64,000 nt of DNA, taken from the NCBI GenBank assembly GCA_964585065.1, contig CAZPCB010000002.1, forward strand, positions 166,967-230,966, given 5' to 3'. Shown here piece after piece: positions 20,599 through 58,460 of this stretch. Source of the stretch: an uncultured Candidatus Saccharibacteria bacterium (GTDB lineage Bacteria; Patescibacteriota; Minisyncoccia; SW-4-49-11). How positions within the stretch are numbered: the first letter of the stretch is position 1; each line of letters begins with the position of its first letter. The position numbers and the translations under genes were made by a program. Below the pieces are notes generated by a model. The model made no database searches, was not told where the DNA came from, and worked only from the letters and a program-made list of their open reading frames with translations.

Positions 20599-22482
20599 TT
20601 AATCTAGGGTACCAATATAATTATATCGAGCTATATACATATCTCTATTACTAGTAGGTGTGAGTGAGATTTGATTAGTACCGCCAATACCAAATGTTGC
20701 AAAACTATTAAAGTCTCCCGCTATTACAAAACCTCCCAGTACCTTCCCAATTGCTATTCCTCTATCTGAACCCATTCCTCCAGCTCTTCGAGCCCAAGCA
20801 AGAGTCCCATCAGTATTATATTTAGCTATAAATACATCATCACTACCACTACTGGTCAGAATAGTCTGATTTGTTTCTCCCGGTCCAAAAGTAGCTGTTC
20901 CATTAAATTGCCCTGTTATAATACTACTTCCATCTATATTCCTCATTATATCAAAACTGCTATCATCATTTAGGCCCCCAGCTTTTTTAGCCCAGATTAA
21001 ACTACCATTATCACTATATTTAGCTATAAATATATCTGAACCACCACTGCTACTTAAGATGGTTTGATTTGTCTCTCCTGGTCCAAAAGTAGCTGTTCCT
21101 TGAAGGTTTCCTATTATAAGACTATCAGTATTAGGTAATGTTCTAACTGCTATGGGGCCATCCCAACCAATTCCACCAACCTTTCGAGCCCAAGCTAAGG
21201 TTCCATTAGTATTATATTTGGCTATAAATCCATCTATATCAGTAGTATTCGTCAATATAGTTTGATTTGCTTCTCCTTGTCCAAGAGTAATATTTCCATA
21301 AAAAGCTCCAATTATGATAGAGCTACCATCATTTAACATACTAACTCCTGTACTATCATCTATATCTGTACCACCAGCTTTTCGAGCCCAAGCAAGAGTC
21401 CCATCAGTATTATATTTAGCTATAAAAGCATCTCTATTCCCAGCATTAGCTACTAGAATAGTCTGATTTGTTTCTCCCGGTCCAAAAGTAGCTGTTCCCT
21501 GAAAGTATCCTACACTAATACTAGTCCCATCAGATAAAGTACTAATACCATAGCCACGTCCATAATCTCCTACTACACTACCAGTAACTCCTTTAGCCCA
21601 AGCAAGAGTCCCATTGGCATTATATTTAGCTATAAATGTGTTATTTGAGATAATACTATTTAATGTTGTTTGATTTGTTTCCCCTTGTCCAAACACTGCA
21701 GTCCCACTAATATAACCCGTTGTAATACTGCTCCCATCAGGAAGACAGCTAATACCATAGCTTATATCATAGTCATTTCCTCCATCCCGCCTAACCCAAG
21801 CCAAACTACCATCGATATTATATTTGGCTACAAATATATCATATCCACTCCCAACAGATGTACGTATGGTCTGATTTGTTTCTCCTGGGGCGAAGGTTGC
21901 ATTTCCTTGAAATAATCCTGTCACTATACTGCTCCCATCAGAATTAGTACACATTCCCCCTGTATTAATAATTTCTCCAGGACTTCCCCCAGCCCGCTTT
22001 GCAAAGTTAACTGGTGTTGCTGGAAGGGTAAAAGTTGTACTTTGAGATTCAGAAGTGAAAGTGGTATTATCAACACTATTAATTCCTCCCACTCCAATTT
22101 TACCATTTGTACTTTTTACTATATAAAAACCACTATTATTGATATCGGTGGAATATGAAGGGATGCTCGCAATATAATTGGGTACTAATACAGATAAATT
22201 TACCTTACCCGTACAAGAGGGTGCTCCTGTTTTACAAATTTCTAGAGAACTACCAGCAGGAACATTCTGGACATCAGTAGGATAAGCTCCAGTTTTGAGT
22301 GCATATTGTTCTATAGCTTGATAGAGAGTAAGGGCATCAGCTTTACGCTTATTGTCATTGACTTCAGTAATAATTCTACTTGGATTAAGAGTATATAATA
22401 CTGTAGCAAAGAGAACAGCAAGTAGAGCAATAACAAGAAGTATTTCGAGTAGGGTAAAACCTTTTTTTGTATAGGGTTTCAT
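20599..22482 (-). CDS. Type IV pilin-like protein with C-terminal SBBP-type beta-propeller repeats (putative pilus adhesin)
   Basis: Prepilin N-terminus MKPYTKKGFTLLEILLVIALLAV (class III signal, GFTLLE). About 8 tandem repeats of the form G..D.S.GIS.L.DGSSI..G.F.GTATFGPGETNQTIL....DAFIAKYN.DGTLAWARK.GG. Confidence 0.7.
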   Translation of the reverse strand: MKPYTKKGFTLLEILLVIALLAVLFATVLYTLNPSRIITEVNDNKRKADALTLYQAIEQYALKTGAYPTDVQNVPAGSSLEICKTGAPSCTGKVNLSVLVPNYIASIPSYSTDINNSGFYIVKSTNGKIGVGGINSVDNTTFTSESQSTTFTLPATPVNFAKRAGGSPGEIINTGGMCTNSDGSSIVTGLFQGNATFAPGETNQTIRTSVGSGYDIFVAKYNIDGSLAWVRRDGGNDYDISYGISCLPDGSSITTGYISGTAVFGQGETNQTTLNSIISNNTFIAKYNANGTLAWAKGVTGSVVGDYGRGYGISTLSDGTSISVGYFQGTATFGPGETNQTILVANAGNRDAFIAKYNTDGTLAWARKAGGTDIDDSTGVSMLNDGSSIIIGAFYGNITLGQGEANQTILTNTTDIDGFIAKYNTNGTLAWARKVGGIGWDGPIAVRTLPNTDSLIIGNLQGTATFGPGETNQTILSSSGGSDIFIAKYSDNGSLIWAKKAGGLNDDSSFDIMRNIDGSSIITGQFNGTATFGPGETNQTILTSSGSDDVFIAKYNTDGTLAWARRAGGMGSDRGIAIGKVLGGFVIAGDFNSFATFGIGGTNQISLTPTSNRDMYIARYNYIGTLD

Positions 22483-34955: not shown

Positions 34956-36206
34956 ATGCAAAAAAAAGGGTTTACATTATTAGAGGTATTACTGGTTATC
35001 GCTTTAATAGGGATATTATTGACTATTATATTGGTAGTCCTCAATCCAAGGGAGCGTTTTGCTGTAGCTCGTAATGATGTTAGGAAATCTGATATACAAA
35101 AATTAGAAGGAGCTCTTACCCAATATCGCTTACAAGAGGGATCCTATCCTGCGGGACTTACTTCAACCTTACAAGAAATTTGTGACCCAGATATTAGTAA
35201 TCCTTCCGTAAATTGTGGTAGCTATATTAACTTATCATCTCTTGTCCCAACTTATATTCAATCCATACCACAAGATCCCCAAGACACTGATTCAACAGGA
35301 GGTTCTGGATATCAAGTTGCGGTAGATGTGACACGAAATGTAGTAGCACTAAAAGCAATACAGGCAGAATCCTCAGCTACAATATCTATTAATGACCCCT
35401 TATCATCGGCTCTACCAAGTACAGCGGTAAATACACCACTTGCAGCAAGTAACCCTTCCATAACTAGTCAAACTCCACCTTTAGTACCTAATACAGGAGA
35501 TGTATCGCTACTGCTCCATGCGGATGGTAGTTTTGCGGACAGTAGTCCTAATAATTTTGTTCCAATGAGTACTGGAGGGACTCCCGGAGTGAGTGGCGAG
35601 GGGGTGCAAATTAGTACTACTCAGAGCAAGTTTGGTGGTTCAAGCCTATTCTTCCCAGATGTGGACATAAATAATGCCCCCTATCCTGCGTTGTCATATT
35701 GGACACCTGAGTCTGGTGGATATAATTATTTCCCTGAGTTTAGCCTAGGAAATACTTATACAATTGAAGCATGGGTCTACGCAATTACACCCAGGGGAGG
35801 AATAGTTGAGAGGCTTGCTGGAGCTTTTTCACAGGAATATGGGTACTCTATGACGTTTGAAGGAGCACGAATAAAATGTTACTTTTACGGAACCTTCGAC
35901 GGTTCAGGATTTCAACAGTATATCTTAGCTCCTTCTGCATTTCCCACCTCAACCTGGGTTCATGTAGCGATGGTTCGTAGTGGAACAAACGGAGCCTTAT
36001 ACATTAACGGTGAGTCAGTTGGTACTATAAATAATCTTAACACTCCGCAAGGAAGTGTTAAGCCGGTTCGTATAGGTTCAAAAAGTGTTGGAAGCGGAGG
36101 AAATTATAACACTATCTTCTTCAACGGTTACATAGATGATCTACGTATCACTAAAGGAGTTGCCATATACACCTCTAACTTCACCCCACCTACTTCAGCT
36201 TTTTGA
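34956..36206 (+). CDS. Type IV pilin-like protein with C-terminal LamG/concanavalin A-like lectin domain
   Basis: Prepilin N-terminus MQKKGFTLLEVLLVIALIG. C-terminal 160 aa has the LamG_3 pattern (TWVHVAMVRSG..ALYINGESVG...FNGYIDDLRITKG). Confidence 0.65.
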   Translation: MQKKGFTLLEVLLVIALIGILLTIILVVLNPRERFAVARNDVRKSDIQKLEGALTQYRLQEGSYPAGLTSTLQEICDPDISNPSVNCGSYINLSSLVPTYIQSIPQDPQDTDSTGGSGYQVAVDVTRNVVALKAIQAESSATISINDPLSSALPSTAVNTPLAASNPSITSQTPPLVPNTGDVSLLLHADGSFADSSPNNFVPMSTGGTPGVSGEGVQISTTQSKFGGSSLFFPDVDINNAPYPALSYWTPESGGYNYFPEFSLGNTYTIEAWVYAITPRGGIVERLAGAFSQEYGYSMTFEGARIKCYFYGTFDGSGFQQYILAPSAFPTSTWVHVAMVRSGTNGALYINGESVGTINNLNTPQGSVKPVRIGSKSVGSGGNYNTIFFNGYIDDLRITKGVAIYTSNFTPPTSAF

Positions 36207-38539: not shown

Positions 38540-39805
38540 ATGCAAAATAAAAAAGAAAAAGGCTTTACATTATTGGAGATATTACTAGTAATAGCAGTAA
38601 TAGGAATATTAGCAGCTATAGTATTAATTGCTATTAATCCTAATAAACAAATAGCGCAAGCTCGTAATACTGCTAGGAAAGTTGATATTAATACATTAGA
38701 AAAAGCCTTAAGACAATATTCTATAGATAATGCAGGTCAGCTCCCAAATGTAATACTGAATCAATATAAAGTAATTTGTAGACAAGGTATTACTGATCCT
38801 TCTTGTATTAATCTTGATGTTTTGGTACCCACATATATTGCGGCTATTCCTCGGGATACACAATCAAATACTATTAATACAGGATATTCGGTAGCAGTAA
38901 ATCCCAATAATACGAATGTTTCTATTGTTGCAAATTTAGCTGAACAGTTTGTAGAAATTTCAATTAATAAATTTAATGAAGGAAGTGGTGCTTCGGCTTT
39001 ATTAGCAGCTAATTCTTGTCAATCTATTTTGTCTTCTGGATACTCAACTGGAAATGGAGTATATTGGATTAATTTACCTACTTCAGGTGCTACACAGATA
39101 TATTGTCTTATGGATACATTATTTGATGGTGGTGGCTGGATGTTGGCTATGAAAGCTACTCGCGGCACTACATTTAATTACGACTCTGCTCATTGGACTA
39201 CAACAACAACATTAAATCCCACCGATCTAACGAGAAACGATGCGGATGCTAAGTATCATACTATGAACTATTACCCCACCAGGGATTTAATGGCCGTGTG
39301 GCCAGATATCCCAACAGCTGGAGGAAGTATTCCTAATACTGGAAGCTGGACTTGGTTGGAAAAGAATTTTTACAATGGTGGTAATCGAACTACTCCTATA
39401 AATTTCTTTAGCACAATGGGAACATATAATAATGGCGGAACACCTAGTACGGGTGATTATGGCGGCTATTTTATTAAAGACGCTAAGACATTTAGTGGCT
39501 GGGCAAATGGTGTGTTTTCGAGCCAGGTAGATATTAGATTTTATGGATTCAACTTTATCAATCATCCTAATTACGGATTTAATGGTAGAGTCCGTTGGGG
39601 ATTTGGATGGAATGAGAATGGTGAGGGACTATATACTAGTCCTGCTACACTAGCCACCGGCTGGGCACCTGGGTCGGATGACGTAAGTGGTGGTATAGGT
39701 ATGGCAAGTCAATTTGGTAGTTATTCAGCTGGAGATATAATTAACTGCTGTCAAGATAATACAGGTATAAACCGATCCGCTAGAGTTGAATTATATATTA
39801 GATAA
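38540..39805 (+). CDS. Type IV pilin-like protein with C-terminal fibrinogen-related domain (FReD)
   Basis: Prepilin N-terminus MQNKKEKGFTLLEILLVIAVIG. The segment NSCQSILSSGYSTGNGVYWINLPTSGATQIYCLMDTLFDGGGWMLAMKATRGTTFNY matches the FReD core pattern C..G.SGvY.I.P...VyCDM.tdGGGWT..Q.R.dG..F. Confidence 0.7.
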   Translation: MQNKKEKGFTLLEILLVIAVIGILAAIVLIAINPNKQIAQARNTARKVDINTLEKALRQYSIDNAGQLPNVILNQYKVICRQGITDPSCINLDVLVPTYIAAIPRDTQSNTINTGYSVAVNPNNTNVSIVANLAEQFVEISINKFNEGSGASALLAANSCQSILSSGYSTGNGVYWINLPTSGATQIYCLMDTLFDGGGWMLAMKATRGTTFNYDSAHWTTTTTLNPTDLTRNDADAKYHTMNYYPTRDLMAVWPDIPTAGGSIPNTGSWTWLEKNFYNGGNRTTPINFFSTMGTYNNGGTPSTGDYGGYFIKDAKTFSGWANGVFSSQVDIRFYGFNFINHPNYGFNGRVRWGFGWNENGEGLYTSPATLATGWAPGSDDVSGGIGMASQFGSYSAGDIINCCQDNTGINRSARVELYIR

Positions 39806-39814
39806 CAAAATTAT

Positions 39815-41086
39815 ATGGCAAAATTTAAGATTAAAGGAAAGCAATTTGGTAAAAAGGGTTTAATTCCCGTATATGGAGCCAAGAATTCAGCAATAAAATT
39901 ATTACCAGCTACACTCTTGATTGATGGAGTAATAACTCTTCATAATATTCCCGATATTGATGATATTCGCGATATGATTGCGATATTGATTGCACTGGGG
40001 GCAAAGGTAGATAAAATCGCCCAACATTCTTATACTATTGATACCACTACTATTGATAATAATAAAATTCCTATTGAACTTGCAATTAAAATGCGAGCAT
40101 CATTTTTGTTTATTGCTCCATTATTAATTCGTTTTGGAGAAGTTGAATTTCCTCATCCTGGAGGAGATGCAATTGGTCGTAGGCCAATTGATATGACATT
40201 AGAAAGTCTTAGATTAATGGGAGCTGAAGTGATTGAGGATAATCAAAAATATATATTCCGATTACCCAATAAAAGTCTTAAAGGAATAGAATATATATTC
40301 AAATGGATTTCGCATACATCTACAGAGAATTTAATTATGGCGGCGGTAAAGGCAGAAGGGAAGACAATCATTTATAATGCTGCTCTTGAGCCAGAAATTA
40401 CTGCTCTTTGTGATATGTTAAGAGGAGCGGGAGCTCAGATTACTGGAGATGGTACCTCACAAATTGAAATTGAAGGAGTTCAAGAATTATCCTCAGTAGA
40501 ATATACTAATATACCAGATAGACTTGAGGCAGGTACATTTGCAATTTTAGCGGCTCTCACCCGAAGTAATATTATGGTTACTGATATTAATCCTAATCAT
40601 TTGAGAGTATTTTGGAAATTCCTTGATATGGCGGGTATACAATATGAATTAGGGGATGACTTTGTACATATTATTCCTCATCATAATAGCTATAAGGCTC
40701 TACAGCTTAAAACACATGAATATCCTGGTTTTGTAACTGATTTACAAGCCCCATTTACCCTTTTATTAACACAGGCTATTGGTACTTCGGTAGTGCAGGA
40801 GACTATATTTGATGGAAGATTATTTTATACGGATACTTTGAATCAAATGGGTGCTAATATCATTATGTGTGATCCCTATCGCGTAGTAGTAAATGGACCT
40901 ACTCAATTATATGGACGCAAAATAGAAAGCCCTGATGTAAGAGCTGGCATGACATTTTTATTAGCAGCTTTAATTGCTGAGAGAGATAGTGAAATTCATA
41001 ATATTTATCATATTGATAGAGGATATGAGAAAATAGAAGAGCGCCTCACCAATATAGGCTTTGATATTATACGAGAAAATACATAG
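39815..41086 (+). CDS. murA: UDP-N-acetylglucosamine 1-carboxyvinyltransferase
   Basis: 423-aa EPSP-synthase-fold enzyme. N-terminus KIKG...LIPVYGAKNSAIKLLPATLL is typical of MurA. Confidence 0.9.
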   Translation: MAKFKIKGKQFGKKGLIPVYGAKNSAIKLLPATLLIDGVITLHNIPDIDDIRDMIAILIALGAKVDKIAQHSYTIDTTTIDNNKIPIELAIKMRASFLFIAPLLIRFGEVEFPHPGGDAIGRRPIDMTLESLRLMGAEVIEDNQKYIFRLPNKSLKGIEYIFKWISHTSTENLIMAAVKAEGKTIIYNAALEPEITALCDMLRGAGAQITGDGTSQIEIEGVQELSSVEYTNIPDRLEAGTFAILAALTRSNIMVTDINPNHLRVFWKFLDMAGIQYELGDDFVHIIPHHNSYKALQLKTHEYPGFVTDLQAPFTLLLTQAIGTSVVQETIFDGRLFYTDTLNQMGANIIMCDPYRVVVNGPTQLYGRKIESPDVRAGMTFLLAALIAERDSEIHNIYHIDRGYEKIEERLTNIGFDIIRENT

Positions 41087-41099
41087 TCTTCTTTTAGGT

Positions 41100-41480
41100 T
41101 TTTTTACATATTGTCCCTCGCTGGCGAGGGGGGACCACAAAGTGGTGGGTGTGGACCTGATTATGAATAAGATGAGGAATATCATAGACAAAATATGAGT
41201 TATGTAGGGGCGACCTTACAGTCGCCTGTATTCCACCCCGTCCGCCTAAAGGAGACCAACCCCTCAAGAGGGAAATATATAAAAATGTAGTGTTCTAAAT
41301 ATTTCCTGCCTAGGTTGTGGGTATATAGGCCCGCTCTATATCATAAAATACATTGTCCTGAAAATTACCCTCTTGAGGGGTGCCATCTTTGATGGCGGGA
41401 TGGAGGACACTATTGTGTACCTATCTACATTTTAAATTTACCTCTTTGTCTACAAGCTCCTCATCTCAATCTCATACAAA
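41100..41480. repeat. GC-rich hairpin-dense palindromic intergenic element, copy A (paralogous to 56760-57300)
   Basis: Shares the core TATGAATAAGATGAG..ATC.TAGACAAAAT.GAG..GTAGGG..G.CCTTACA.TCGC and CC.CC.AAAGGAGA.CAA with copy B. Internal long inverted repeat (41233-41272 vs 41368-41423) includes CCCCTCAAGAGGG/CCCTCTTGAGGGG. Confidence 0.6.
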
Positions 41481-41518: not shown

Positions 41519-43015
41519 ATGTATATGCATAATATTAGTAGAGATAATTTAGAAATTGCCAGTAAACAACTTTGGGATTTTTTGAAACCGTATATATCTT
41601 ATCTTAATTCAGCTGATTTAGAGCAAGTAGAAATTGCTTTTATGCAAATGGTAGAAGCTCATCAGGAGCAAAGACGAAAAAGTGGAGAATATTATATTAC
41701 TCACCCAGTTTCAGCTTGTATTACTTTGGCTGATATGAAATTAGATAGGGACACATTAATTGCAGTATTACTTCATGATGTACCAGAAGACACCGAGGTA
41801 AGCCTAAGACAATTAGAAAAAGTATTTAGTCATGAAGTGATTTTTCTTATTTCAGGAGTAACTAAATTATCTAGTATCAAATATCAAGGAGAAGATAGAT
41901 ATGCCGAGAATTTACGGCGTATGTTTGTTGCTATGAGTCGTGATATTCGGGTTATTTTTATCAAATTAGCTGATAGAATTCATAATCTCGAAACTCTTGA
42001 TGCTCTACCTCTTGATAAGGCTCATCGTATTGCTCTTGAGAGTTTAGAAATATATGCCCCTATTGCCGAGAGATTAGGTATGGGAAAATTTCAAGATAGA
42101 TTAGAGAATTTAAGCTTTCCCTATGCTTACCCTCAAGAATATAAAGCTTTAGTAGATGAGGTAAAGCAAGAATATAATATTCGCCAAAATGTATTAGAAC
42201 ATATTCAAAAGAATATCGAGCATATATTTAATGAAGAAGATATTGAGCATATTAAAATTTATGGAAGAGCAAAAAAATATTATTCTTTGTATAAAAAATT
42301 AGATGCAGGAAAAACCGTAGATGAAGTATATGATTTGATTGCGCTAAGGATTATTACAAAAGATATTGCAACTTGTTATCAAGTATTCTCAATAATTCAA
42401 TCCCATTTTGAGCCTCTCGAGAATCGGGTAAAAGATTATATTGCCAAGCCAAAAGATAATGGATATCAAAGTATTCATACTACTGTTCGAGACAAGGATA
42501 CAGGAACGGTATTTGAAGTACAAATTCGCACGGAGGAAATGCATGAATATTGTGAATATGGAGTTGCATCACATTGGTCGTATAAACAAAAATCAGATAT
42601 AGATACTCATTCTTTTATTGATACAGATAAATTTAAATGGATACAAGATTTAGTTAATTTAGGTAAAGAGCCATTGTCGGAAGAAGAGTATTTACAATAT
42701 GTAAAATTAGATTTATTTCAGGATCAAATTTTTGTTATGACACCAAAGGGGGATGCTATTCGTTTACTTGAAGGTGCTACGGCTCTTGATTTTGCTTTTC
42801 GTATTCATCAAGATATTGGAAGACATGCGAGCCTAGCTAAGGTAAATGGAAGCCCGGTTAAATTATCAGAAAAGTTAAAAAATGGTGATATAGTAGAAAT
42901 TATCACCGATAAAAAACAAAAGCCTCATCGTGATTGGTTGAATATGGTCAAAACTCCTTCAGCAGCTCGTACTATACGCAATAATTTGCGTAAACAGGGG
43001 GTTAAATTGGGATAA
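41519..43015 (+). CDS. Short RelA/SpoT-homologue (p)ppGpp synthetase/hydrolase (HD + synthetase + TGS, no ACT/C-terminal regulatory region)
   Basis: HD motif HDVPEDT. Synthetase motifs (GRAKKYYSLYKKL, DLIALRII, YQSIHTTV, EVQIRTEEMHE). TGS domain at the C-terminus. 498 aa. Confidence 0.85.
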   Translation: MYMHNISRDNLEIASKQLWDFLKPYISYLNSADLEQVEIAFMQMVEAHQEQRRKSGEYYITHPVSACITLADMKLDRDTLIAVLLHDVPEDTEVSLRQLEKVFSHEVIFLISGVTKLSSIKYQGEDRYAENLRRMFVAMSRDIRVIFIKLADRIHNLETLDALPLDKAHRIALESLEIYAPIAERLGMGKFQDRLENLSFPYAYPQEYKALVDEVKQEYNIRQNVLEHIQKNIEHIFNEEDIEHIKIYGRAKKYYSLYKKLDAGKTVDEVYDLIALRIITKDIATCYQVFSIIQSHFEPLENRVKDYIAKPKDNGYQSIHTTVRDKDTGTVFEVQIRTEEMHEYCEYGVASHWSYKQKSDIDTHSFIDTDKFKWIQDLVNLGKEPLSEEEYLQYVKLDLFQDQIFVMTPKGDAIRLLEGATALDFAFRIHQDIGRHASLAKVNGSPVKLSEKLKNGDIVEIITDKKQKPHRDWLNMVKTPSAARTIRNNLRKQGVKLG

Positions 43016-55457: not shown

Positions 55458-56738
55458 ATGAGTAATAAGATATTTCAGATAATTCCTTCACTATCACAAA
55501 ATAAAATTACAAGTGAAACAACTGCTATTTGGGAACATATTGTTGCGGATATACGATTAACCCTACAAAGTACAGGGTATCAGCATAATGTATTTGCTTT
55601 TAGTCAAAAAATTTCTTTATTTACTCCAGAAATAATTTCCGCATTAAATCTTAATGATAAAAAATCTTTACTGACTCTCAAAAGAGCAAGTAAAGATGCT
55701 ATTGTTATGAGTGTGCCAGGACCTATAAGTATATTCAAATCAGTTATTGATCATAATCTTGAATATCAAGAAGAACCATTAAAATTATTTGACTATGGAA
55801 TATCATTGGTAGATGAGGATGATGATATTACAACAGAGCCAAAGCAATTACATGTATTTAAAGCTGAATGTATTGGGGATGATACTCCTGTGAGGGATGC
55901 TGAATTAATTCTCACTACGTATCGAATGTTGGAAGAATTAGCCATACCTAATTTAATAGTGACAATAAATGAGCTTGGAGGGCAAGAATCTCGGCGAAAA
56001 TATTATGAGGAATTAGTGTCAAAGGCACAGCCTCGTTTTGCAGAATTAGTTCAATCATTACAATATAATCCTATACAATTATATAATGAATTATCTTCAG
56101 AAGATACTGATATTAATTTACGATTACCGCAAATTGTAGATTATTTGAGCACTTCTGAAACTCAGTATTTTAAAGCAATATTAGAATTTTTGGAGACATT
56201 AGATATTCCTTATGAATTAGATTCTAGTCTTTCGGGTTCAATTGGATTTAATGAGGGAGTATATTTTGAAATTAGAAGTCAGGATAATCCAGATATTGTA
56301 CTGGTACGTGGAGGAAGACATAATGAATTATTTACTCTTTTGGGAGGAGATAAAAAAGCAGGATCAGTGGGGGTAGAAATTTATGTGGATGCGCTTGTAC
56401 ATATTGTTGCACAAATACAGACAGATGTGGTGATTGAGAAAAAAAAGCCGGATATTTTTGTAGCTTCTATTGGTCCTGAAGGACAAAAAAGTGCTTTAAA
56501 AATATTATCTCTGATTCAAAAACATGGACTTGGAGTAAAAGAAAGCTTTGGAATCAAAAGTCTCAAACAACAATTATTAAAAGCAAAAAAATCAGATGCG
56601 GAGATTACTCTTATAGTTGGTCGTAAGGAGGCTGTGGATGGGACGGTTATACTTAGAGATAAAGAAAGTGAAAATCAAGAAGTAATACCTATTGAAAAAT
56701 TATTATCCATTATTAGTCATAAATTAGAGAAAGAATAA
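55458..56738 (+). CDS. Divergent histidyl-tRNA synthetase-like class II protein
   Basis: Class II motif-3-like RGGRHNELFTLLGG (cf. HisRS GGGRYDGL). HisRS-like N-terminal core. C-terminal anticodon-binding-type alpha/beta domain. Confidence 0.5.
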   Translation: MSNKIFQIIPSLSQNKITSETTAIWEHIVADIRLTLQSTGYQHNVFAFSQKISLFTPEIISALNLNDKKSLLTLKRASKDAIVMSVPGPISIFKSVIDHNLEYQEEPLKLFDYGISLVDEDDDITTEPKQLHVFKAECIGDDTPVRDAELILTTYRMLEELAIPNLIVTINELGGQESRRKYYEELVSKAQPRFAELVQSLQYNPIQLYNELSSEDTDINLRLPQIVDYLSTSETQYFKAILEFLETLDIPYELDSSLSGSIGFNEGVYFEIRSQDNPDIVLVRGGRHNELFTLLGGDKKAGSVGVEIYVDALVHIVAQIQTDVVIEKKKPDIFVASIGPEGQKSALKILSLIQKHGLGVKESFGIKSLKQQLLKAKKSDAEITLIVGRKEAVDGTVILRDKESENQEVIPIEKLLSIISHKLEKE

Positions 56739-56759
56739 ATTGGTAAATCAATACAAAGA

Positions 56760-57300
56760 CAAACAATAATTAATTATAAACTGTAGAGTGGTTGACAAGT
56801 GGGGGAGGAGGTCCCCTCCGAAGGGAGACAAAATACAAGTTGCACAAAAATCCAAACACAGGTGACTGAGAGGTCACCCCTACGAGATTTTATAAAAAGT
56901 TTGTATATATCTCAAGTGCTAATATATACAAACTAGGGTACTTTGTATATATCTATGAATAAGATGAGATACATCGTAGACAAAATGAGATTGGTGTAGG
57001 GTGGCCTTACAATCGCATATGTTTTCGTAACAAAAGAATTATTACTTTTATCCCCCCCTTTTTTTTTGGGGTAGGGGCTGAAAGGCGGGGGTGTATAAGA
57101 TAAAAACTTGAACTCTATCCACCTCCGGCCTGACGGCCACCTCCTCCAAAGGAGAACAATTTTTGTATCAAGCTATGTTTTGTAAGTTATTAATGTATAG
57201 TAATCTGTTTTATATATTAATTTCCCCATCTCCTACAGGTAATAGATAGTAATACAGAGAATAACCGTGACACTCCTCTCTGTACAGAGAATATAATATA
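56760..57300. repeat. GC-rich hairpin-dense palindromic intergenic element, copy B (paralogous to 41100-41480)
   Basis: Shares the core with copy A (about 80% identity over about 70 nt from 56954). Contains a perfect 11-bp palindrome TTTGTATATAT/ATATATACAAA (56900-56932), a C7T9G4 homopolymer run (57052-57071) and a direct repeat TACAGAGAATA. Confidence 0.6.
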
Positions 57301-57333
57301 TATTATAATAATAGTATATTAATTTTTATTATT

Positions 57334-58326
57334 ATGTCTAAAGATATAGATTCTAGTTTAGAATCATCAGGTGAAAAACAAGTTTATGCCTCATCTCAGA
57401 GAAGATTGATTGCATATGTTTTGGATTTTATTTTAGCATTCTGGATATCATATGTATTATATATAATAAGTTTTATTATCATTATATTAGCCCCGTTTCC
57501 TCTTGTTACCTTGTATAATAATATACATAATAGAGTGCTTGAACTATTTGATAACAATATAATAATTTTTGGATTGATTCTATATACTGTTTATTTTGGT
57601 TTATCCTTTCTCATCTTTGGGAATACATTGGGAGGGAAGTCTACGGGAATTAATGTTGTGAATACGGCAGGGGGTATTATATCTAAAAGAAAACTAGCTT
57701 TTAGGGGGCTGATTATAGGAGTGTTGACGTCATTATCTCCATTGATACTATTACTATCAATTACTACCTTATTTGATAAAAAGAAAAGAACTTTGTATGA
57801 TATGGTGCTTGGTACGGTGGTTAATAAAGAATTATCTCATAATAATTATGATTCACTACCACAAAATCAAGTATATGCATCAGCTTTAAGAAGATTTTCT
57901 GCATATACTTTAGATATAATTCTTTTGATTATTATTTCGGTTGTCTTGAGTACGGGGTTTTTATTTGCTTATTTGGGAGGTATTATAGGATCTGCTGGAT
58001 TTGATCCTTTTGTTGGGCTTGCTCAAAATCAATTTTTAACTGACATTGTAACTACAAATAAATATGAGAGCCTTTATAGTTTGATTTATATTTTTTACTT
58101 TTTCTTCTCATTTCTCCTATTTGGGAATACATGGGGAGGGTATATTTTGAAAATTGAATCAGTAAATAGTGGTGGTGAGCGAGCATCAAAAATTAAGCTT
58201 GCTTTTAGAGCTTTGTGGTTTGTATTAATCCCAATTAGTGCAATAACAGTTTTATTTAATGACAAAAAAAGAGCTGTACATGATGTAGTTTTCGGTACAG
58301 TGGTGACTAAAGATAGAATCTTATAG
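57334..58326 (+). CDS. RDD-family membrane protein with tandem duplicated RDD domains
   Basis: Two homologous halves, each starting YASSQRRLIAYVLDFIL / YASALRRFSAYTLDIIL and ending KKRTLYDMVLGTVV / KKRAVHDVVFGTVV. Confidence 0.5.
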   Translation: MSKDIDSSLESSGEKQVYASSQRRLIAYVLDFILAFWISYVLYIISFIIIILAPFPLVTLYNNIHNRVLELFDNNIIIFGLILYTVYFGLSFLIFGNTLGGKSTGINVVNTAGGIISKRKLAFRGLIIGVLTSLSPLILLLSITTLFDKKKRTLYDMVLGTVVNKELSHNNYDSLPQNQVYASALRRFSAYTLDIILLIIISVVLSTGFLFAYLGGIIGSAGFDPFVGLAQNQFLTDIVTTNKYESLYSLIYIFYFFFSFLLFGNTWGGYILKIESVNSGGERASKIKLAFRALWFVLIPISAITVLFNDKKRAVHDVVFGTVVTKDRIL

Positions 58327-58431
58327 GGTACTGGAAGTAAAAATTGTATTGAATACGATATATGGGGGGATATTTATTTTAGATTTATCTATTAATTTAC
58401 CCATTTCCTACACCTCATCTTATACATACTA

Positions 58432-58460
58432 TTGCTAATCTTTTGATTTTGTGATACAAT
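58432..58460 (+). promoter_or_regulatory. Putative rpsU promoter TTGCTA-17-TACAAT
   Basis: Hexamers at 58432-58437 and 58455-58460. Predicted TSS about 58467, immediately followed by a hairpin (AGUCUU-GCAA-AAGACU + U-run). Confidence 0.45.

Follow-up and report, generated by a model that had tools for sequence, protein, structure and literature searches.

Transposable elements of the miniature inverted-repeat type (MITEs) are known from several bacteria, for example as the Correia elements of Neisseria and the RUP and BOX elements of the pneumococcus. Insertion sequences (IS) of the IS481 family carry a single open reading frame (ORF) for an HTH+rve transposase of ~340 aa, are ~1.1-1.2 kb long, end in TG...CA inverted repeats and duplicate 2-15 bp of target, mostly 6 bp (PMC10045372). 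Mobile insertion cassettes such as MIC231/IS231 of Bacillus cereus, 0.7-3 kb in size, have IS repeats around a passenger gene (PMC6199540), and REP/BIME/REPIN sequences and their RAYT transposases form mosaic intergenic arrays of GTAG-headed, GC-rich palindromes and inverted doublets (PMC3337134). Here we analyse a stretch of 64,000 nucleotides from contig CAZPCB010000002.1 (hereafter the window, meaning this whole 64-kb stretch), which is ~30% GC with tightly packed genes and in which two intergenic spacers contain a palindromic repeat, called copy A and region B. An earlier note on this DNA had recognised A and B as one repeated, partly palindromic family lying upstream of genes, and this holds. 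We put a probability of about 80% on the explanation that region B and copy A are non-autonomous derivatives, that is MITEs, of an IS481-like IS that circulates in Paceibacteria/Parcubacteria.

The central observation is that, on sequence comparison, the core that A and B have in common, TGAATAAGATGAGATACATCGTAGACAAAAT, is the left terminal inverted repeat (IRL) of this IS481-like element. Among the loci compared, which were taken from other assemblies and are labelled with L-numbers such as L016 and L040, the motif precedes a 342-aa HTH+rve transposase in L040. Homologues of this protein are encoded in L094/95 (94% identity), L099 (71%), L097 (67%), L098 (65%) and L096 (64%), where the motif lies 100-140 nt upstream of the start codon and an inverted copy occupies the last codons of the ORF. 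These loci, all from Parcubacteria/Paceibacteria metagenomes, amount to six intact IS copies of 1122-1157 bp (1.12-1.16 kb) with TG...CA termini, each encoding a 338-342-aa transposase, with the motif as IRL and the inverted copy within the 3' end of the ORF as the right terminal inverted repeat (IRR). The IRL starts TGAATAAGATGAG and the IRR ends CTCATCTCGTACA; the terminal inverted repeat measures 30-31 bp, 5'-TGAATAAGATGAGATACATCGTAGACAAAA...CA-3'. In addition, IRL and IRR co-vary within lineages, as illustrated by CGTGGACA at both ends of L096/L097.

The transposase contains the Pfam domains rve, rve_3 and HTH_23/28/29. Its best NCBIfam model is IS481 (NF033577; 179 bits, profile positions 2-283 of 284), the second being IS3 with 111 bits, and relatives at 43-44% identity carry the NCBI name IS481 family. 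Perfect 5-bp target duplications, inside the 2-15 bp range of the family, flank the IS in L040 (TTAAT) and a 420-bp element in L016 (GAGTT), and four of five positions match around A in the window. An integron attC site or a Xer/dif-module was rejected as a candidate, as the motif is not dyad-symmetric and the intact IS copies explain it.

The motif is distributed well beyond the window. The search for the core that the earlier note had proposed was carried out with the pattern GAATAAGATGAGN{5,9}TAGACAAAA on genomes and with a relaxed 19-base pattern on metagenomes, where ~63 of 73 matches were due to chance. It returned eight true places in five metagenome-assembled genomes (MAGs) of the candidate phyla radiation (CPR), four of them in JBIKWJ01, which holds two MITEs and at least three solo repeats, and ten further places in metagenomes; a scan of viral contigs for the motif gave 0 matches. 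Within the window, the core TATGAATAAGATGAG occurs exactly twice (41162 and 56954), with an inverted one-mismatch copy at 58414-58428. At three mismatches this 15-mer is not above chance (10 matches versus 8.1 expected), whereas longer blocks are, namely the hairpin motif GTAGGGGYGACCTNNCAGTCRCCTGT (2 matches versus 0 expected) and the block TTAATTTMCCCATYTCCTAC (2 versus 0.06). Direct alignment of A and B, also proposed earlier, gave 77% identity over 71 nt (41162-41232 versus 56954-57023). As a separate observation, L094 and L095 carry an identical IS copy and right flank (tRNA genes and rpoB) next to two different left flanks, reflecting either an IS-mediated rearrangement or assembly chimerism across the repeat.

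Terminal repeats were located with a hidden Markov model of the inverted repeat (IR HMM), which, together with the other comparisons named below, divides the two spacers and their surroundings as follows.

41100-41163, forward strand: older hairpin-module remnant (GTCCCTCGCTGGCGAGGG ... GGGTGTGGAC), outside the left repeat of A.
41164-41478, forward strand: MITE A, 315 bp, with IR HMM matches at both ends; IRL 41164-41194, GTAG-headed hairpin 41204-41229, IRR 41445-41478 ending ...CTCATACA.
56739-58431, forward strand: strain-variable block of 1.69 kb (B1, B2, leader, RDD gene and right-end repeats), from alignment of near-identical strains.
~56741-56930, forward strand: B1, probable degenerate MITE relic, which by eye is collinear with the L016 MITE's right half; possible eroded IRL TGGTAAATCAATACAAAGACAAAC, decayed CTCCCT/AGGGAG-type hairpin ~56812-56829, inverted GTAG hairpin 56858-56883 (matched by the hairpin motif search).
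56956-57237, forward strand: B2, MITE of 282 bp, from IR HMM matches at both ends and homology with L010; IRL 56956-56986, decayed GTAG hairpin 56995-57020, decayed C7T9G4 hairpin 57052-57071, long-range stem 57085-57094 with 57119-57130, GGCC-tgac-GGCC hairpin 57127-57138, CCTCCTCC-aaa-GGAG hairpin 57140-57154, IRR 57209-57237 (...CCCCATCTCCTACA).
57238-57333, forward strand: IS-derived leader of the RDD gene, 96 nt, from alignment with the IS leader and a promoter scan; hairpin ACAGAGA 57254-57260 / TCTCTGT 57277-57283, promoter-like TGTACA-17-TATAAT at 57281-57309 (promoter scan).
57334-58326, forward strand: tandem-RDD membrane protein gene, 330 aa (Pfam RDD), in the place of the transposase ORF.
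58384-58426, reverse strand: right-end repeats, from the IR HMM and motif searches.
58427-58460, forward strand: TACTA (5 nt), then the host promoter TTGCTA-17-(TGA)TACAAT, from the promoter scan.

Copy A sits between murA (39815-41086) and relA/spoT (41519-43015). It contains a long internal inverted repeat (41259-41276 with 41364-41381), and its arms are 60.7% self-complementary over 323 nt. GATTA at 41159-41163 is a possible left target duplication, matched by AATTA after the right end, and the remnant module further upstream recurs in L014, L017, L053, L064, L080 and L094. Copy A is nearly unchanged in JBIIRM010000003.1 (Candidatus Paceibacteria bacterium), L009 carries it too, and the intergenic gap is of equal size in GCA_041447055.1; no empty site for A was found among the compared assemblies.

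Region B occupies the intergenic DNA from a HisRS-like gene (55458-56738) to the tandem-RDD membrane protein gene. It had been described as a single element, but the interval given covers at least three pieces: the relic B1, the MITE B2 and the RDD leader of IS origin. The IRL of B2 is identical at 31/31 positions to that of the intact IS in L095, and B2 aligns over its full length, AT-rich spacers included, with the MITE in L010 (78.8% over 297 columns including 27 gaps), which comes from another species; the MreB proteins of the two genomes are only 48% identical. An inverted repeat reported earlier within B2, GGCGGGGGTG (57085-57094) versus CCACCTCCGGCC (57119-57130), is partial, and its arms pair in the DNA fold. 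L092 carries a solo IRL in the place of B2. The SRR8942238 assembly (L001, L002) breaks within B2 at 57125-57143, its pieces overlapping by 19 nt at the hairpin module CCGGCCTGACGGCCACCTC, as expected if this module is repeated elsewhere in the genome.

The collinearity of B1 with the L016 MITE suggests that it is the relic of an older MITE. The perfect palindrome described previously was confirmed by direct reading: TTTGTATATAT spans 56900-56910, the complementary ATATATACAAA spans 56922-56932, and the arm appears a third time at 56942-56952. The palindrome occupies the place expected for the IRR of B1 (TTTGTATATATCTC...TATACA).

Complete MITEs with both repeats are thus found as A and B2 in the window and in L010, L016 and L017, the L016 element carrying the motif and its inverted copy at its ends. 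A and B2 lack a transposase ORF and have repeats homologous to those of the autonomous IS, and the 64-kb window holds two clear MITE copies plus relics. Like the Correia, RUP and BOX elements, these MITEs are short (170-420 bp), intergenic, multi-copy and strongly self-complementary, have no transposase, carry ends that match an IS, and are in some copies associated with promoters. They differ in residing in a streamlined CPR genome, in forming promoter-proximal stacks and in having an interior that is a mosaic of interchangeable GC-rich hairpin modules. We infer that an HTH+rve (DDE) transposase supplied from an autonomous copy elsewhere would bind the repeats in trans and move the short elements, with the GC-rich hairpins as interior cargo.

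The same hairpins could instead belong to genes or leaders of a structured non-coding RNA, whose stems would fold and regulate the downstream relA/spoT and RDD genes. Many GC-rich hairpins in a genome of ~30% GC, the orientation that the elements share with the downstream gene, the fold of A, which is far better than that of shuffled sequences (z = -5.75), and the pair-preserving differences between equivalent hairpins (GGCC-tgac-GGCC, GTCACC-ttac-GGTGAC and GGCAC-tcc-GTGCC) all agree with such an RNA. However, neither the window at gathering thresholds nor the two spacers at E<=10 yielded an Rfam match, the best being far below gathering, and covariation across 16 copies of the GTAG hairpin did not exceed that of shuffles (one double change, with 172/500 shuffles as high). 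The stems of B2 are decayed, with several broken, such that its fold barely beats shuffles (z = -1.77), and between B2 and L010 the spacers are as conserved as the stems. Moreover, the ends of the elements are transposon repeats with target duplications and the block is dispensable in sister strains. We consider an RNA of this kind very unlikely. A tRNA/tmRNA scan of the window found two ordinary tRNAs only, both outside A and B.

Another possibility is that the hairpin modules are REP/BIME-like sequences, with GTAG palindromes and REPIN-like doublets, that are spread by a RAYT (Y1, IS200-like) transposase independently of the IS481-like repeats. The commonest module, GTAG plus a 7-bp GC-rich palindrome, occurs ~20 times in the compared loci and in both orientations; L075 contains an inverted doublet, other modules also begin with CGTAG, and modules are found outside repeat-bounded units. 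The GTAG-headed palindromes, inverted doublets and mosaic arrays are indeed shared with the REP systems, but the hairpins here lie inside elements bounded by DDE-type repeats, and in L016 and A the GTAG hairpins are placed symmetrically just inside the IS repeats, as in the sub-terminal structure of a MITE. Inspection of the window ORFs, by eye only and with no wider RAYT search, showed no Y1 transposase. Spread by a RAYT is therefore unlikely in our view; it would cover the interior modules only and is compatible with the MITE explanation.

According to the earlier note, B also contains a conserved mini-ORF and a C7-T9-G4 run open to slipped-strand variation, which together would make it a translated, switchable regulatory element. 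The run is present as described (C7 57052-57058, T9 57059-57067, G4 57068-57071). The mini-ORF exists in both window copies with exactly the codon differences listed, most of them conservative, and the C and T runs vary in length between species (C7T9 in the window, C5T3 in L010). Nevertheless, the mini-ORF sequence is the 30-31-nt terminal inverted repeat of the IS481-like IS and is found inverted at element right ends. Conservation begins exactly at TG, while the A of the supposed ATG is a variable flanking base present in ~9 of 21 copies, and the start codon is therefore an accident of the flank. Past GACAAAA the frame enters unrelated sequence in different copies, so that no two copies agree in ORF length and C-terminus, A and B included (11 versus 14 codons). 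The homopolymer run, in turn, is a decayed form of the CCCCC-tttgga-GGGGG hairpin of the homologous MITE in L010. Its position is the MITE interior rather than an ORF or promoter spacer, at a distance of >200 nt from the promoter of RDD, and SRR8942238, the sole other assembly with the occupied allele, has the identical run; in L093 the region is wholly rearranged. The notion of a peptide-coding, phase-variable element is thereby largely refuted and seems to us scarcely credible.

Comparison of near-identical strains revealed that the unit that actually varies at B is the 1.69-kb block at 56739-58431, and not the interval singled out before. According to exact-protein look-ups, the block is absent in L003, L005, L006, L007, L008 and GCA_041447055.1, where the comparison used the gene table of a 106-kb contig; on the L008 contig the upstream gene is represented by its last 28 codons only. 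In the block-less assemblies only 73 nt separate HisRS from the S21-like gene, and ~11 nt, GGTTTGTAGGG, stand in place of the block. SRR8942238 is the one other occupied allele and is identical to the window. The 1.69-kb difference may have arisen by insertion or by deletion, and comparing occupied and empty sites gives no simple boundaries at B. At the empty site of L003 (3927-3945), the 11-nt filler contains TGTAGGG, with which the variant repeat TGTAGGGGATGGGG begins (its first 7 nt), and which lies 2 nt from the -35 box; the filler may have been left behind by a loss, in which case the site was never a virgin one.

Within the block, the RDD gene occupies a shell derived from the IS. Its leader aligns with the IRL-to-transposase-ATG leader of L094, L040 and L099, hairpin and TATAAT box included, and the direct repeat TACAGAGAATA noted earlier at 57253-57263 and 57283-57293 is confirmed as the two flanks of the IS leader hairpin. 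On the right lie a variant IRR with its end at 58412 (...CCCATTTCCTACA) and, after it, the 14 nt of a standard terminus, CCTCATCTTATACA, whose last base is 58426; the position equivalent to these right ends (58412-58426) reads ...CCCCATCCCCTACA in L092. The right end abuts the 58427-58460 promoter, which serves an S21-like/YqeY/YbeY/FtsA operon. RDD relatives were found at 93% and 91% identity; the gene lies upstream of the S21-like operon in the window and in L091/92, and the L093 contig ends too early to tell. In L092 the IRL-leader-RDD-IRR unit measures 1210 bp.

With left repeat, leader and promoter, passenger coding sequence and right repeat but no transposase, the RDD unit matches the definition of a mobile insertion cassette. 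It shares with MIC231 the IS repeats around a passenger gene, the lack of a transposase and an IS-derived region by the left repeat, which in this case comprises the leader hairpin and promoter, and the L092 unit falls within the quoted size range. It differs in having been found at one locus only (window and L091/92), upstream of the S21-like operon, and in having no target duplications; we saw no sign of the unit moving as a whole. Two neighbouring observations concern the same locus in other lineages. L093:1387-1889 holds an internally deleted IS481-like transposase pseudogene directly after the RDD right repeat, without a left repeat or leader. In the lineage with the 93%-identical RDD (L091:1-4800 and L092:235-2061), Shedu-like (SduA_C), GmrSD_N and Fic genes lie upstream of the RDD unit and constitute a small defence-type island at this variable locus.

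The right ends of the elements share a distinctive position relative to promoters. In seven of nine independent IS/MITE right ends, 5 nt are followed by TTGnnn (TTG at +6), and in five of those seven a TAnnnT box lies 17 nt beyond. Binomial P values for these junctions are 1e-10 (TTG at +6) and 4e-14, taking the composition of all sequence compared as background and with the register picked post hoc. The right end faces the downstream promoter in all ten elements. Since the hexamer lies outside the 5-bp duplication in L016 and L040, it is host DNA, and the promoter at the 58426 end of the window (TTGCTA-17-TACAAT) is already found in the strains with an empty site. Within the IS, the transposase ORF meets no stop codon and runs through the right repeat and 5 nt beyond. 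In all four copies examined (L040, L094/95, L096 and L097) it ends at the TGA of the flanking TTGA(C/A) -35 box, for example at L040:1274-1345, and a -10 box lies 17 nt beyond that box; the corresponding right-end stretch of the window is 58413-58460. The L098 transposase stops at a TAA further downstream. The absence of an internal stop codon and the insertion 5 bp upstream of -35 boxes set this IS apart from the IS481 family, and we know of no member with the latter feature.

Insertion would accordingly duplicate 5 bp just ahead of a -35 box and leave the right end pointing to the promoter. Each new copy would therefore come to lie on the promoter side of an older one. We infer from this a progressive stacking of decayed relics at one gene, with B1 then B2 upstream of RDD and the 41100-41160 remnant then A upstream of relA/spoT.

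Left repeats also occur alone, with no partner within kilobases, in L011, L013/L053/L089, L014 (two sites)/L075, L015, L064/L072, L066, L072:2475-2504 and L080. These solo left repeats precede unrelated, non-transposase host genes, and 12 of 16 copies (~9 independent loci) have, 17 nt past a -35-like hexamer, a TAnnnT box, frequently with TGn in front. The hexamer is TAGACA, or TTGACA in L072b; L015 has TATAAT at a spacer of 18, and L072b an additional TATAAT at 19. An origin of the solo repeats by crossover between TAGACA of the repeat and TTGACA of a host -35 was rejected, as the AAA after the hexamer is repeat-derived in solo copies. The solo repeats look like exapted promoter halves.

This raises the question of whether the 30-nt motif serves the host in the first place as a promoter or operator, comprising a -35 TAGACA and an upstream protein site, which would make A and B regulatory rather than mobile. 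The solo copies speak for it, as does one orthologous locus in three genomes at which the motif is conserved at 29/30 positions and the adjacent spacer has diverged. In A and B2, however, the motif is followed by TGAGATTNGTGTAGGG and no -10 box is present at 16-19 nt. The motif is the terminal repeat of an intact IS with an inverted partner, its conservation starts sharply at the transposon-type TG, and the downstream genes lack functional coherence. As an account of A and B the promoter or regulon reading was rejected and, taken as the primary role of the motif, is improbable; a secondary promoter use is plausible for the solo repeats, for which alone we retain it, and leaves A and B unexplained.

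Returning to the MITE explanation, the junctions permit a further, more tentative proposal. The IS481-like family might recognise sigma-70-type -35 hexamers, insert in one orientation 5 bp upstream of TTGAC(A) and borrow its TGA as a stop; relics would stack, left ends (TAGACA) would be exapted as -35 halves, and the IS shell would be re-used for passengers such as RDD. We rate this somewhat below even odds. The empty site offers only ~14 nt between stop codon and -35, and because selection in such tiny spacers could alone yield much of the junction geometry, we offer active -35 targeting only as a hypothesis.

Several observations weigh against the MITE explanation or its details. With 179 bits, the IS481 score falls short of the curated cut-off (224). 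The flanks of copies other than L040, L016 and A match at 0-3 of 5 bp, in most metagenomic IS as well as in B2 and the RDD unit, which have no duplication; some of the metagenomic contigs without duplications may be chimeric across repeats. The ~11 nt at the empty site differ from the window and include the repeat-terminus-like TGTAGGG, and the polymorphism at B is not a clean insertion. The repeats of B1 are too eroded to be detected by the IR HMM, and hairpin modules occur outside repeat-bounded units too. Finally, tblastn of the transposase against the 64-kb window gave no match, nor did the genome scan match an intact IS in the MITE-bearing MAGs JBIIRM01 and JBIKWJ01, leaving present-day mobility here unproven.

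Elsewhere in the window, a 120-nt patch of >57% GC (2114-2233) lies in a 588-nt spacer (intergenic 1950-2538) with a 961-aa ORF downstream; Rfam gave no match to the patch, which is unlike the MITE modules. On the reverse strand, a 627-aa ORF (20599-22482) has a type-IV-pilin-like N-terminus and about six tandem 198-nt repeats, and two further pilin-like ORFs are found at 34956-36206 and 38540-39805.

Among the 15 top-ranked matches of a full-text literature search, no paper combines CPR/Patescibacteria with REP or MITE terms, and the family and its autonomous IS therefore appear undescribed. The IS481-like IS, its MITEs and the cassette-like derivative are of known kinds in an under-studied phylum, and the promoter-adjacent insertion is the part worth attention. 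With this explanation, two puzzling 430-600-bp 'palindromic' CPR spacers become ordinary transposon debris, and the mini-ORF and phase-variation story is removed from the annotation. The strain-variable RDD block further indicates that genes continue to be gained and lost at the locus marked by the relics. If the junction geometry reflects true targeting, this would represent a new target specificity for a DDE transposon, would provide a 'safe haven' in streamlined CPR genomes, where intergenic spacers hold little beyond promoters, and would offer an explanation of how mobile DNA persists in genomes nearly without spare intergenic sequence.

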